DNA of 64,000 bases, taken from contig JAZTWW010000043.1 of the NCBI GenBank assembly GCA_045636065.1, positions 3,085 to 67,084 on the forward strand, in the 5' to 3' direction. Source of the stretch: Kiritimatiellia bacterium. Its GTDB lineage: Bacteria > Verrucomicrobiota > Kiritimatiellia > RFP12 > UBA1067. A program made the translations under genes and the position numbers. The notes under the pieces are model-generated. The model was not told the origin of the DNA. It saw nothing but the letters and a program-made list of their open reading frames with translations, and ran no database searches. Positions 9,803 to 43,371 of the stretch are shown in pieces (within the stretch, counting starts at the first letter, position 1; each line of letters begins with the position of its first letter).

Positions 9803-10858
9803 ATGGCAATACAATTCAACCTGAATGCGCTGAGCAGGTTCTCGAACGTCAATTTCGGCGACAACGACGCCATTGCCAATCTTGACGGAAAAGACGGCCT
9901 AAAGCAGAACGAAAAGCTCGGGTTCATCCTCACGAGGAAATTCCGCAGCGCCGACGCCGAGAAGCAGAACAACGCCGTGCGCACAGAGCTCCTGAAGGCG
10001 CTCGCGAATGCCTTCGGAATCAAAGACGGCATCGCCGTGGCCAACGGCAAGACGACCTTCACCGACAAGTTCATGAGCCGGCTCGAGGAGATTCTCGGGC
10101 CCGAATTCAAGCGCGGCGACTTCGGCATCAAGGATGGCGTGGTCGATTCGGGCAAGCCGCTCACCCAGCGCCGCATCCAGGCCATCGTCAAGGCGGCCAG
10201 GGCGAAGGGCGATGCAGCGGCCTACGACGGAACGACGTACCTGGCGAAGGTTGACTACATCAAGGGCTGGACCAAAGACAAAAGGGGCCTGGATGCCGCC
10301 ACCAAGAGGGCCGCGCTCGACTTCTTCGACGTCAAGATCCGCAATACGATTGACTTCCTAGACAATGAGTTCAAGGAACTCAGCTACGCCAAGGTGGGCC
10401 GTAACAATGGTGATTTCCAAAAGTACATCAATGAAAAGACCGGACTGGACGTCGACGTCGATAAGATACTCTCTGACCTGCATGCGAAAAACGCCATAAA
10501 AGACGCTTCACTGGATAATGATTGCATCGTCAACATCGACGACATCGACGACATCGCGGACAAGACGTTTGAGCCAGTCAAGCAAAAGATCGGGGAGCTT
10601 CTGAAGACTCTGGTCAAGCAGTCTGTCGATCTCTTTATCCATACGATGGAATCGAAACATGGTGAAATGTACAAGTCCGTGACAGGCATTGTCTCCACAG
10701 AAGGCGAGAGCGTGGAGGTAACCCTGAGCAGGTTGGACAACCTATCCGGGACGATAAGCCGGGTCGACCAGTACTGGCAGCACAAGCAGAACCAACCCGC
10801 CCAGGAAGATGAGGGCGACGTCTTTGAAGAAAACCACGAGGAGTACCTGGTCGAGTAG
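9803..10858 (+). CDS. Candidate type III effector with the MAIQF N-terminal module and a unique C-terminus
   Basis: Good RBS. The N-terminal ~130 aa (NNAVRTELLKAL...GKPLTQRRI) are shared with 27877 and 10919. No signal peptide. Lies in the chaperone-rich island. Confidence 0.6.
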   Translation: MAIQFNLNALSRFSNVNFGDNDAIANLDGKDGLKQNEKLGFILTRKFRSADAEKQNNAVRTELLKALANAFGIKDGIAVANGKTTFTDKFMSRLEEILGPEFKRGDFGIKDGVVDSGKPLTQRRIQAIVKAARAKGDAAAYDGTTYLAKVDYIKGWTKDKRGLDAATKRAALDFFDVKIRNTIDFLDNEFKELSYAKVGRNNGDFQKYINEKTGLDVDVDKILSDLHAKNAIKDASLDNDCIVNIDDIDDIADKTFEPVKQKIGELLKTLVKQSVDLFIHTMESKHGEMYKSVTGIVSTEGESVEVTLSRLDNLSGTISRVDQYWQHKQNQPAQEDEGDVFEENHEEYLVE

Positions 10859-10884
10859 CCTTCCGCCACTTGGCGTGCAGGCAG
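10855..10884 (+). promoter_or_regulatory. Island 30-bp motif copy overlapping the upstream stop (TAG 10856-10858)
   Basis: GTAGCCTTCCGCCACTTGGCGTGCAGGCAG, followed by an AGGAGG RBS and ATG 10919. Confidence 0.55.
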
Positions 10885-10918
10885 GGCGAAACTTCTAAAG
10901 CCAAAAGGAGGCGGAACC

Positions 10919-11248
10919 ATGGCAATACAATTCGATCCGAATGCGCTGAACAGGTTCGCGGACGTCAATTTCAGGGAGACCGACGCGATCGCCAACCTGG
11001 ACGGAAAGGACGGCCTCAAGAAGAACGGCACCCGCGGCTGGGGCGTCTTTTCGGGATGGCGCTCGGGCGACACGAAGCGGAGCAACAACGCCGTGCGCAC
11101 CGAGCTCCTGAAGGCGCTTGGGCGGGCCTTCCATCTCGAAGGCGTCGGCGAGCTGTCCGGCAAGGCGACGTTCTCCGAGGCATTCATGAACAGGCTGGCG
11201 GAGATCATCGGCCCCGAATTCAAGCGCGATGACTTCTGCACGCAGTGA
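10919..11248 (+). pseudogene. Truncated MAIQF-module effector (109 aa)
   Basis: Collinear with the 9803 protein to GPEFKRDDF, then stops before the GKPLT motif. Confidence 0.65.
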
Positions 11249-11285
11249 TTCCAGCAAACCATTTCGGGCAACAGGAGGTAAGACC

Positions 11286-14200
11286 ATGTCGATCAACTTG
11301 TCTAACGTTAACATCACGATCCAGCAGTTTCAGGAGATCGCGTCCGGCAAGTATAACGCCGGCGAGGTCAAGCTGACGAGTGAAACGTCGCTCGGCAAGA
11401 TCAACAATCACGTCGGTTACGGCGGAACAAACAACGATACGATTTCGCACGACGAGGTGCTGGCCATCAAGGACGCCTTCGTGCGCGCGCTCTCAAAAAG
11501 CGGTGTGGGGGTGAACGCCTTGGCCGAGATTCGCCGCCGCATCGGGCTCGCGCCCGATCCCTTGTCGCCCAAGGCGCTCGTGGAACGCAGCATCCGGCCG
11601 CTTTCGCGCCAGCAGATCCGCAGCATTCTCGACGAGCACAGGGACGAAATCAACCTCGCGACGGGAGCACAGACGGTTCGCACCCACGCCGAAATCTACG
11701 CGCGGCACGGCGACGAGGCCATCGCGCGCTACGAGCGGACGCGTCGCGCCGTCAACATCGCGTTCATGCAGAGCCGCAACCTCGACGGGAACCGCCGTAT
11801 CCTCGACCTCCAGCGCGTAATCGCGGGTGACATCCATTTCTGCACTGGCGAAGACCGTACGCGCCTCATCTCGTCCGCCGAGATGCTGCGCGCCGAAATC
11901 CTGCGGCTCGCCGGGAACGGCGCTCTCTCCGAAGATCCCAATTCCACCATCACGGTCAGGAAGGGCGATGGCTCTACGGTTACGCTCGGGCTGGGCATGA
12001 GCAAACGGGATTTCATAGATAAGCTCGACGACAGGCTCCTGCAGCTGAGGTCCGACCGCCAGGCGCCGCAGTCGACGATCGACGCGCATAACGAATACCG
12101 GCTCGCCAAGGCGGGCGGCGCGGAGGGCAAGGCGAATTGGCTCGCGTCGTTGCAGGACAATCCGCTCGGCGGCTTCAAGGCGCGCGCGGTGGCCGTGGGC
12201 ATGCTCGTGGAGTTCGGCATACTGGACAACGCATCGCTGGCGCTTCTCAACAAGGTTTCCGACCAGGATGCCATCACGTTCGTTTCGTTTTTGATGACGA
12301 ATCCGGACAGCCTCAAGGGCCAGCAGCTCAGAGACAGCGCGGCGTTCCAGCATCTCGTGCAGCAGGCGGCGGCGAACGCGCAGGTGCCGCAGAACCGCCA
12401 GGCCTACATTCCGGTGCCCTCGCCGGAAGAGTTCAACCAGGAACTGAACGACAAGCTCAGGGGCAACCTCGACCGGGCGCCGCTCCGGTTCAAGCGGATG
12501 GTGGACGAAATGCGCAGCGAATTGACCGCAGCCTTCGGCGCGGAGGCCGTCCCCGCCAACATGAGGATCGGCGATATGGGCGTGAGCAACCAGCTTTACA
12601 CAGCACTCGCCGGCGACAACAATCGCCTTCAGGACTACGCCACCCCGGAAGCGCTCAAGGCGCGACTCATGCCGGAGGCCCGCAAAGAATGCGCAAAGCG
12701 ATTCTTTGCTGCTGCGCTCACGCCGATGCTCAAGCTGTATGGACTGCCGGAGGTCGTTGCCACCGCCGTGACCAACAATCTCTTCAACCGCCATCCGGAA
12801 ATCTGCGAGCGCCTTTTGCAGGCGCGCAATCCAACCGAAGCGTCGGCAATCGTGGGCGGATTCAAGAACGAAATCGACGAAGCGATGCGCCGCAAGGCGG
12901 CAGTGGACAGCTGCAAGGCGAATGTCCAGGGTTGGGCTCGCGAGGAAATGGCTCGGCAAATGGGGATTCCGGTAGCCTCGCTCGAGGGCATGGGGGTGAA
13001 CTTCAACCAATTGGTCGCGAAAGCGAGCCGCCTCGCCTCAAAGATCTGCGACGGCGAAGACGCGGCCAACACGGACGCGGAGATCGAAACCAAGTTCCGC
13101 GCAATGGCGCGCGCCGCCGCAACCGAGCGCGCCACGCTCCTCGCCCAGGCCGACGGTCTCGAAGGCGTCTCGCCGCAGACGCGCGACGAAATCAAGCGCC
13201 AGCTGATGATGATCGACGTGGTGACGGGCCTCGACCTCGCCGCGATCAAGGCCGCGCTCGGCGACGTGCATGCCGGCGACCTCATGCCCGCGCTGGAGGA
13301 CGGCTCCGCGCGCAACGACGCGCTGAACATGCTGGGCACTGTGGGCCAGCGCGTCAAGGGCGCCGCGGCGGCGTACATCAATGCGAACAACGGCACGCCG
13401 GAGCTGCTGCAGGCCGTCACGAAGATCATGCTCGCCATTGCCGTCTGCGACCAGCCGGGGCTGGTGGACCGGCTTGACCAGTTCATGAACCGCCCGGAAA
13501 TGTTCGGAGTGAACCTCGCCGACCTGACCCGGATCGATGGACTGCCCGACATCGCGCTCCATGCGGACATTTTCATGACGATCGTGCCCGAAGAGGGCTT
13601 TTCGGCCGACAGCGCGGCGATCGCCGGCGGCATCGCGACCGGCCGCCTGCCTCCGCTCGCGGCGCAGGCCATAAACCGTGCGTTCGCGGATCTGGGGCTC
13701 GCCAACCTCTCCGCCGAGGCCAAGACGGCCATGCTCGCCGGTGCCGCAGGCCAGGCGCTCGCCGCCCAGGTGCGTGCGCTCCGGATTCCCTGCACGCCCA
13801 CCGTGCTGCGCGGTCTCGCCCGGATGCATTTCGCCAATGCCGCCGCAGTCGAGGCCGCCAAGCGCTATGCCGCGGTTCTCGGCCAGACGCATGGCCTGGA
13901 AGTGGACGCGGATTCCGCGCGGCGGACCCAGGAGGCGCTCTTCGCGCGCTTCCCCGATCTCGCAGGCAAGGTCGCGACCGCCATGTCCAACGCCGCCGCC
14001 CGCGGCGAGAACGCCAGGATTGCGGCCAACAACGTGCTCAAGGACTACACAAAGGAAATAGAAATTGCCATCCGCGCCTTCCGCGATGTGACGCTCGCGG
14101 ACGCCGGTGCGCTCGAGACCGCTGCCGCCAGGATTGCCGACCGGACCGGACTCGACGAAAACACCGTCCGTTCCCGGCTCGACCTTGGCGCTTTGAGCTT

Positions 14201-43134: not shown

Positions 43135-43144
43135 TGCGTCTGAT

Positions 43145-43168
43145 GCCTTGGCCGCATGCGGCCAAGGC
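43145..43168. repeat. Perfect 24-bp palindrome (hairpin or terminator candidate) abutting a motif copy
   Basis: GCCTTGGCCGCATGCGGCCAAGGC equals its own reverse complement. Confidence 0.8.
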
Positions 43169-43198
43169 GTAACCTCCCTTTGCGAGGCGTGTATGCGC
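43169..43198 (+). promoter_or_regulatory. Island 30-bp motif copy with a variant spacer
   Basis: GTAACCTCCCTTTGCGAGGCGTGTATGCGC; the GTAACC to GTGTA spacing is unchanged. Confidence 0.6.
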
Positions 43199-43345
43199 AA
43201 GGACCTCGCCGGCATGCTCGAGGGCGACTACAAGCTCGAATACATTGACATCGACGTGTCGTACGATTTCCATATCGACAAACTCTACAAGTTCAACGCG
43301 ATGCCTGGCGCGCAGCTGGAGGAAATGGATCTTCAGGCCCCGTAA
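43193..43345 (+). pseudogene. Probable C-terminal remnant (50 aa) between two motif copies
   Basis: MRKDLAGMLEGDYKLEYIDIDVSYDFHIDKLYKFNAMPGAQLEEMDLQAP*. The ATG lies inside one motif, there is no RBS, and the stop lies inside the next motif. Confidence 0.5.
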
Positions 43346-43371
43346 CCTTTTGCCGCGCGCCGTGTAGACAG
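43342..43371 (+). promoter_or_regulatory. Island 30-bp motif copy overlapping the upstream stop (TAA 43343-43345)
   Basis: GTAACCTTTTGCCGCGCGCCGTGTAGACAG, upstream of ATG 43413. Confidence 0.65.

Follow-up and report, generated by a model that had tools for sequence, protein, structure and literature searches.

We propose that a bipartite DNA motif repeated in the genome of a Kiritimatiellia bacterium (assembly GCA_045636065.1) is probably the promoter shared by the effectors, chaperones and translocators of a type III secretion regulon, and that it is read by a sigma factor of the extracytoplasmic function (ECF) type encoded next to sctU. The window that we analysed, by which we mean the whole stretch of 64,000 nucleotides (positions 3,085 to 67,084 of contig JAZTWW010000043.1), carries ten scoring copies of this motif (Table 1). 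A sequence-only reading of the window had noted that the stop codons of six open reading frames (ORFs) occupy one and the same motif position, and had seen in this either a boundary of mobile cassettes or a repeated collapse of intergenic DNA. The six stops are indeed found at one shared motif position (TAG at 10856, TAA at 17596, 33146, 42541 and 43343, and TGA at 32574), and the question is what kind of element they are part of.

A position weight matrix (PWM) made from the motif copies was used to scan the complete 2.02-Mb assembly (G000), and at the count cut-off of ≥18 bits it finds 27 sites, compared to none in a reversed-genome control. The information lies in two blocks, TGTAACCTTT at positions -2 to +7, counted from the T of the TAA, and GCGTGTAnAC, or GCGTGTAKAC, at +17 to +26. 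They are separated by a spacer of constant length (9–10 nt) and variable sequence, which is low in information in the 27 copies of G000 and in 35 copies from five relatives, and has almost none in the latter. As read at the window junctions, the sequence is (G)TAACCTTT, about ten GC-rich bases and then CGTGTAKACAGGG. The TAA is present in 22 of the 27 copies, and it is part of the motif itself since it is kept in 14 of the 17 copies where no gene stops. In 25 of the 27 copies the motif is followed within 33–150 nt by the ATG of an ORF of 50 codons or more, mostly at 49–90 nt (63 nt in the case of the ORF at 10919, counted from the motif TAG at 10856), and an AGGAG-like stretch usually precedes it.

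The hallmarks of promoters read by ECF sigma factors are an AAC at -35 and a CGT at -10, and the -35 box of SigW is ATTGAAACCTTT (PMC8103513, in the part of that article consulted). The two blocks of the motif hold AAC and CGT at a fixed spacing, as do ECF (group 4) promoters, in the 27 own and the 35 relatives' copies. In such a promoter TGTAACCTTT would be the -35 box and GCGTGTAKAC the -10 box, transcription would start a few bases past the latter, leaders would be some 20–60 nt long, and the TAA would be part of the -35 box with or without a gene end at that site. The likeness to the SigW-type promoters of Bacillus subtilis takes in the CCTTT that follows the AAC (PMC8103513, same part), and the differences lie in the regulon, the host and the base before the AAC, which here is a T and thus places a TAA in the box.

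The core of the motif had initially been taken to be a perfect 12-bp palindrome. With at most one mismatch this palindrome occurs five times, compared to 3.2 expected from shuffled sequence, and arms of at least 4 bp are present in just 10 of the 27 own and 6 of the 35 relatives' copies. Being unenriched, and lost in relatives while both boxes stay, the palindrome was rejected as a core feature. This bears on an alternative in which the motif is the binding site of an activator, for example an AraC- or ExsA-like protein, that works with the housekeeping sigma factor and not with an ECF sigma factor. The spacing, orientation and start-codon distance of the motif would suit any promoter-proximal site, and the partly conserved, GC-rich and palindrome-like spacer of G000 could be the site of a dimer, but it is just this palindrome that relatives have dispensed with. 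Moreover, neither block looks like a -10 box of sigma-70, boxes of the sigma-70 type nearby (TGGTATAAT) are quite different, the blocks agree with the ECF hallmark described in the excerpted part of PMC8103513, and Pfam scans of the secretion cluster reveal no such regulator. We therefore regard an activator site as very doubtful and retain the ECF promoter as the preferred explanation.

The candidate sigma factor is encoded on contig C47 of the same genome, which holds a complete type III secretion cluster (secretin, gatekeeper, SctV, SctD, needle, SctJ, SctL, ATPase, SctR, SctT and SctU). The gene directly 3' of sctU specifies a protein of 181 residues with Sigma70_r2 and r4_2 as its only Pfam domains, which is the domain content of an ECF sigma factor; it scores 72.8 bits on TIGR02937, the model of the ECF superfamily (cut-off 42.9 bits), and its profile matches those of solved ECF sigma factors. 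This protein (G000:C47:80638-81183) would be the one that reads the motif, a copy of which overlaps the last codons of its gene and lies 5' of a 91-residue ORF. The promoter is thereby linked to the sigma operon; the copy is 3' rather than 5' of the sigma gene, and classical autoregulation is thus not demonstrated.

The genes behind the motif are mostly those of large orphan proteins that belong to no Pfam or NCBIfam family, together with an SseC-like translocator and CesT chaperones, and there are 12 CesT matches in G000. Three giant proteins of 1458–2692 residues have a domain like that of ABC1 atypical kinases (window 19170-27248, G000:C47:19222-23664 and G000:C40:11020-15396), and these giants may be secreted kinases. 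Those on C47 and C40 start directly behind a motif copy.

The association of motif, sigma gene and secretion system extends to relatives. Among 60 related genomes, 13 with and 47 without CesT genes, the strict pattern GTAAC-N14-CGTGTAKAC is found in 8 of the 13 and in none of the 47, and a relaxed pattern yields 15, 11, 6, 1 and 5 sites in five CesT-bearing genomes, with no site for a control pattern. The small ORF behind the sigma gene is present in 11 of the 13 CesT-bearing relatives, in none of the 47 others and in 18 of 401 genomes of a phylum-wide sample. A sigma orthologue lies directly 5' of the small ORF at 11 of 12 loci and at 15 of 16 further loci, and the sigma gene has the motif at its 3' end at 9 of 11 sigma loci of the relatives and at most of the 16 phylum-wide loci. 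A scan with the sigma profile, using one genome per species, gave 346 matching stretches, and our analyses use the best 80 of these. They come from metagenome-assembled genomes of ruminant and other guts, titled Kiritimatiellae, Lentisphaerae, Victivallales or Verrucomicrobia. At least 60 of the best 80 species have the motif where the sigma gene ends, with the small ORF behind it. The sigma-motif-small ORF triplet is constant across lineages of very different base composition and is the strongest argument from which we infer that this sigma factor reads the motif. The sole other genome of the genus (G001, 67% complete) was found to contain no SctV, CesT, motif or small protein, and the secretion system and its regulon may be missing from this sister species or may merely be unassembled.

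The small protein (G000:C47:81229-81504; A5) and its orthologues have 81–101 residues and a C-terminal motif, RDDxLGxLVxxAFNLPPPPMPxF. Apart from one C-terminal helix the protein is predicted to be disordered (mean pLDDT 64), and its N-terminus is rich in Ile and Asn, as in other motif-driven genes. Neither Pfam nor NCBIfam has a family for the small protein or the orphan genes, and a search of the ESM Atlas with the small protein was uninformative (best score 0.82).

How often a gene really ends on the motif was assessed by accepting a gene end where the 70 preceding codons are open and score as coding, and by taking the nearest same-strand end for each copy. The codon-usage score is our own; 78% of true long-gene ends pass it, as do 9% of short shadow ORFs. 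Of the six upstream ORFs in the window, three are solid genes, namely those at 9803-10858, the CesT gene ending at 33148 and the 1550-residue gene ending at 42543. The remainder are two mini-ORFs, a 51-codon ORF (17443-17598) that resembles an effector N-terminus and an ORF of at most 69 codons (43136-43345) that follows a CesT gene in another frame, and the degenerate copy, where TGA ends a 61-codon fragment of an effector N-terminus (32391-32576). The list of motifs in the sequence-only reading had also omitted five window copies (9742, 27807, 29538, 37520 and 37814), none of which ends a gene; the gene 5' of the copy at 29536 ends 32 nt before it, and a 2055-residue gene stops 202 nt 5' of the copy at 17594.

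Genome-wide the overlap is far above chance. The GTAAC of motif copies serves as the stop of a credible ORF in 8 of 21 cases, compared to 17 of the 774 other GTAAC in the genome (Fisher p = 4.5e-8, odds ratio 27). In G000 the nearest credible upstream end is at position 0 (TAA, TAG or TGA) in 10 of the 27 copies, inside the motif in two (+7 and +15) and 6–367 nt upstream in 13, and two copies have no such end. For the 35 copies of the relatives, counted in five genomes chosen for their CesT genes, the end is at 0 in nine, inside the motif in three (+8, +8 and +15) and upstream in 16; five have none and two are cut by the contig end. Taken together, 19 ends fall on position 0 compared to 10 in the preceding 45 nt, and the TAG or TAA available in the -10 box at +22 is never used as a gene end (27 and 35 copies). 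The independent units in such a count are protein families and not copies, and the proteins ending at 0 represent about 11 unrelated families, one CesT family providing seven cases. A class II (SycD/LcrH-like) TPR_3 chaperone, G000:C47:29254-29811, also ends on a motif TAA, directly 5' of the gene for the SseC-like translocator; across three genera the C-terminal residues of this chaperone vary and its stop is always the motif TAA.

A position directly after stop codons might suggest that the motif acts in the RNA, in termination, processing or coupling, and some of the window copies can form a short GC hairpin. Yet no gene ends on 17 of the 27 copies, the spacer that would make the stem is not conserved and offers no common pairing, and all ten window copies fold as ordinary sequence does (z from -0.85 to +0.93 relative to shuffles) with no structure in common. 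Rfam gives no match between 9000 and 44500. An intrinsic terminator, with a GC hairpin followed by a T-run, was rejected as a candidate: the T-run precedes the GC stretch and none follows the hairpin, and the terminator-like sites number 16 compared to 18.4 expected, with none at any junction. A role in RNA is thus scarcely credible.

If the motif is a promoter, the overlap can be understood as the end point of the loss of intergenic DNA, and the ends of the upstream genes are informative in this respect. CesT proteins end in ..QV, ..RV, ..HV or ..WV with 68, 22, 5 or 0 nt to the motif, and two proteins ending in ..IIWP have spacers of 39 and 0 nt; the same C-terminal residue is found at varying spacer lengths and, therefore, the spacer was gained or lost while the protein kept its end. 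Several junction states are known for the sigma gene. In 60 scorable species its stop lies 11–21 nt before the box in seven and is the TAA of the box in four, and in the other 49 the frame reads through the box (GTA ACC TTT, giving ..VTF) as far as a stop at +5, +8, +11 or +14 in the free spacer. In L071 the stop of the sigma gene (..RVKF-TAA) is separated by six bases from a TGTAACC, and the stretch is flanked by two TGTA repeats, such that its loss between the repeats would yield exactly the ..RVTF form known from other loci. Intergenic DNA that separates a gene from the next promoter in the same direction would be dispensable and would be lost over time, the last possible step being removal of the full spacer with merger of the native stop and the TAA of the box. 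Such an exact removal would leave both the protein and the promoter unchanged, and (G)TA(A), as a shared microhomology, would favor exact deletions and set the frame, which would account for the spike at 0 and explain why genes do not read on into the -10 box. We infer that deletion, and not selection for overlap, produced the sharing of stop and -35 box. The proposal in the sequence-only reading that intergenic DNA collapses onto GTA(A) hence agrees with the data, in that spacers of 68, 39, 22, 5 and 0 nt occur and that the sigma gene is found in both states across lineages.

The overlap could also be read as the footprint of a crossover. Here the motif would be a recombination substrate, site-specific or homologous, that bounds mobile effector cassettes made up of motif, ribosome-binding site (RBS) and ORF. 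A block of about 2.2 kb, consisting of a chaperone gene, a motif, the 312-residue gene and a second chaperone gene, is indeed 92–97% identical in ten metagenome contigs, and its flanks there have no nucleotide similarity to G000, where most of the flanking proteins have no homologue, so effector modules sit in differing contexts. A 1.58-kb module is absent from variant contigs of two bovine-gut DNA runs (32584 being joined to ~34151-34166), in other strains motif copies that are nearly identical lead into different genes (loose ends at 37520 and 37557), and effector genes have common N-terminal modules of which fragments exist. However, the breaks differ among contigs and fall mostly outside the motif. 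The left ends of the 2.2-kb block are at 32483, 32483, 32534, 32599, 32628, 32628 and 32672 and its right ends at 34670-34689 or 34122-34173, and these are ends of genes or the module's own sigma-70-like promoter; likewise, one edge of the 1.58-kb indel is in the degenerate copy and the other in no copy. A recombination or insertion boundary that would delimit cassettes thus finds no support. Nor does a recombinase accompany the motif, as there is no recombinase gene in the window or on any motif-bearing contig, the three tyrosine recombinases of the genome are all on motif-free contigs and a serine recombinase was not found in it. What is conserved is two boxes with a free spacer, and not a crossover core with inverted repeats; the upstream gene ends at a distance at 13 of the 27 own copies, and exchange between copies would pass on existing overlaps but would not create new ones in 11 families. 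We consider such cassettes decidedly improbable.

Several smaller observations belong to the same question. In many contigs the similarity is confined to 38 nt of the strongest copy (37520-37557) and is lost to either side, a pattern that any conserved repeat would give. A joint from 27744 to 37520 was rejected as a deletion, as only 24 nt fit on one side and all are motif sequence. Three effector-like genes (9803-10042, 10919-11158 and 27877-28116) have a common N-terminal module of about 80 residues, MAIQF.., at 56–75% identity, and the mini-ORFs at 32391-32576 and 17443-17598 resemble N-terminal fragments of such genes and would be scars of recombination or deletion. Among the contigs compared with window 32483-34689 (L045–L052), L051 has the 312-residue gene cut after about 107 codons (window 33515) and followed by a 477-residue gene on the opposite strand, and L050 resumes at window 33508; the break in L051 may perhaps be an insertion. 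Homologous exchange at the common promoter, leader and N-terminal module is a minority reading. In its extended form the promoter copies would act as patches of homology by which rumen Kiritimatiellia swap chaperone-effector modules with no dedicated recombinase, and the small disordered protein would be a secreted anti-sigma factor, a combination that we think unlikely.

Integron cassettes are a familiar case of a repeated element between ORFs of the same direction in which the stop codons often overlap the end of the element, and to this extent the arrangement in the window is similar. The differences are that each unit here has its own promoter, that there is no integrase and that the break points of strains are not fixed. 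The sequence-only reading had already set the motif apart from attC, and rightly: Pfam finds no integrase among the window genes, the spacer is not conserved, conserved inverted repeats are lacking and the copies fold no better than shuffles. Integron-like cassettes were accordingly rejected.

Our proposal of an ECF promoter has to be weighed against several points that do not favor it. What links the sigma factor to the motif is adjacency and co-occurrence. A scan down to 10 bits found no motif before the sigma gene or the sctC structural operon, so the regulon excludes the apparatus genes, and one copy (31.6 bits, contig C36) precedes a transporter of the SBF family. The spacer is partly conserved in G000 (cGCcgcg), which the promoter model does not explain. 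Many breaks in similarity do lie at motif edges (27837, 37520, 37545, 37557 and 42564), and homologous exchange at the motif would equally yield such breaks. The available RNA data are assembled contigs, in which neither 5' ends nor transcript levels are visible; six RNA runs contain 0.05–0.09 of the sampled words and two of them cover parts of 25000-32364 and 36976-38019. Lastly, in a quick tree of 80 sigma factors the junction states are scattered, with at least nine changes compared to a mean of 10.6 for shuffled labels, which fits frequent change and equally fits an unresolved tree, and loss of the spacer as the direction of change is not shown.

The closest known counterpart to the proposed ECF regulon is that of HrpL in Pseudomonas syringae and Erwinia, an ECF sigma factor of the type III secretion cluster that activates effector and secretion genes via the bipartite hrp box, the -35 element of which, GGAAC(T), also contains an AAC (PMC5263251, as far as the excerpted text goes). 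On that description the two have in common an ECF sigma factor encoded with the type III cluster, a single conserved bipartite promoter and the AAC at -35. They differ in the -35 sequence, which is GGAAC(T) there and TGTAACCTTT here; in the apparatus operons, which have no motif copy here; and in lineage, Kiritimatiellia and Lentisphaerae as opposed to Proteobacteria. The hrp box also holds no stop codon and, therefore, cannot double as one. A second counterpart is BtrS of Bordetella, an ECF sigma factor of the type III locus whose secreted antagonist BtrA, with a CesT-type chaperone, feeds secretion back to transcription (PMC10732220, from the excerpt at hand). To the extent that this excerpt describes the pair, the likeness is the small, largely disordered protein of 81–101 residues that is encoded right behind the sigma gene under a motif copy, and as a hypothesis only the small protein may act, by analogy, as an anti-sigma factor that is secreted. 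This sigma factor passes the cut-off of no NCBIfam equivalog, and since the box sequence is different as well, the system is probably a member of neither the HrpL/hrp-box nor the BtrS/BtrA family, although its working mode would be functionally like that of the HrpL/hrp-box regulon. As judged by titles and the first lines of abstracts, none of the listed publications that name Kiritimatiell together with type III secretion is about regulation.

The features of the window are listed in Table 1. The strongest copy, at 37518, has an RBS-like stretch and neither a start codon nor an ORF before the next copy at 37812; with no ORF behind it, it is called an orphan promoter, and it looks as if it had been left behind by a deletion. 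Housekeeping-type extended -10 boxes (TGGTATAAT, TGATATAAT and TGGTATACT) are located at 32662-32670, 34183-34191, 37735-37743 and 37492-37500, and they precede two CesT genes and the region before the 1550-residue gene. The box of the CesT gene at 32696 is a conserved TGGTATAAT (32662-32670) that is kept in all eight aligned variants, and because such boxes precede them the CesT chaperones may be made independently of the ECF regulon. After the CesT gene at 34227-34670 there is a single -10-like CGTGTAGAC at 34697 with no -35 box. The window opens (3-8135) with a protein of more than 2173 residues that has a GDSL lipase/esterase domain, followed by a 527-residue protein with GDSL and SASA (sialate O-acetylesterase-like) domains, and neither has a motif 5' of it.

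Table 1. Motif copies, scored with the PWM, and neighboring genes in the window; positions count from its first nucleotide.
Feature	Coordinates	Strand	Remarks
Motif copy, 53.7 bits	9740..9772	+	Precedes gene 9803-10858; TAA position 9742; no gene end on copy
Gene of 351-residue orphan protein	9803..10858	+	Shared MAIQF.. N-terminal module; stop is the motif TAG
Motif copy, 37.4 bits	10854..10886	+	TAG replaces TAA; TAG 10856-10858 is the stop of gene 9803-10858
Motif copy, 47.4 bits	17594..17626	+	Proposed driver of gene 17670-19043
2692-residue protein, ABC1 atypical-kinase-like domain (Pfam)	19170..27248	+	Second gene of the operon behind copy 17594
CesT-family chaperone (Pfam, 3.5e-24)	27283..27741	+	Ends ..QV-TAG, 68 nt 5' of next motif copy
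Motif copy, 50.1 bits	27805..27837	+	TAA position 27807; no gene end on copy; proposed driver of gene 27877-29508
Motif copy, 32.5 bits	29536..29568	+	CAT replaces TAA (29538); no gene end on copy; proposed driver of gene 29600-32365
Degenerate motif-like stretch	32573..32605	+	Below even the 10-12-bit scans, the lowest cut-off used
CesT-family chaperone (Pfam)	32696..33148	+	Ends ..FMQV; stop is the TAA of next motif copy
Motif copy, 39.7 bits	33144..33176	+	TAA 33146 is the CesT stop; proposed driver of 312-residue orphan gene 33176-34114
CesT-family chaperone (Pfam)	34227..34670	+	TGATATAAT 5' of it at 34183-34191; ends ..QV-TAG
Strongest motif copy, 54.0 bits	37518..37550	+	ATAA; TAA position 37520; no gene end on copy
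Motif copy, 32.4 bits	37812..37844	+	CAA replaces TAA (37814); no gene end; proposed driver of 37891-42543
1550-residue orphan protein, putative effector	37891..42543	+	Stop is the TAA of next motif copy
Motif copy, 44.9 bits	42539..42571	+	TAA 42541 is the stop of the 1550-residue gene; CesT 42691-43134 starts 150 nt downstream
Motif copy, 39.7 bits	43341..43373	+	Proposed driver of 123-residue ORF 43413-43784

The overlap of stop codon and -35 box places two signals on three common bases, with the intergenic DNA shrunk to its exact limit, and no new mechanism is needed for it. The analysis suggests that an ECF sigma factor and a conserved small protein form an undescribed regulatory pair on a type III secretion system of the PVC group, and if the small protein is an anti-sigma factor, the transcription of effectors would be tied to secretion activity, as with FlgM in flagella. 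The motif itself would provide a sequence handle by which the secreted proteins of uncultured rumen and gut Kiritimatiellia and Lentisphaerae can be listed; almost all of the effector-like genes there have no recognizable domains.

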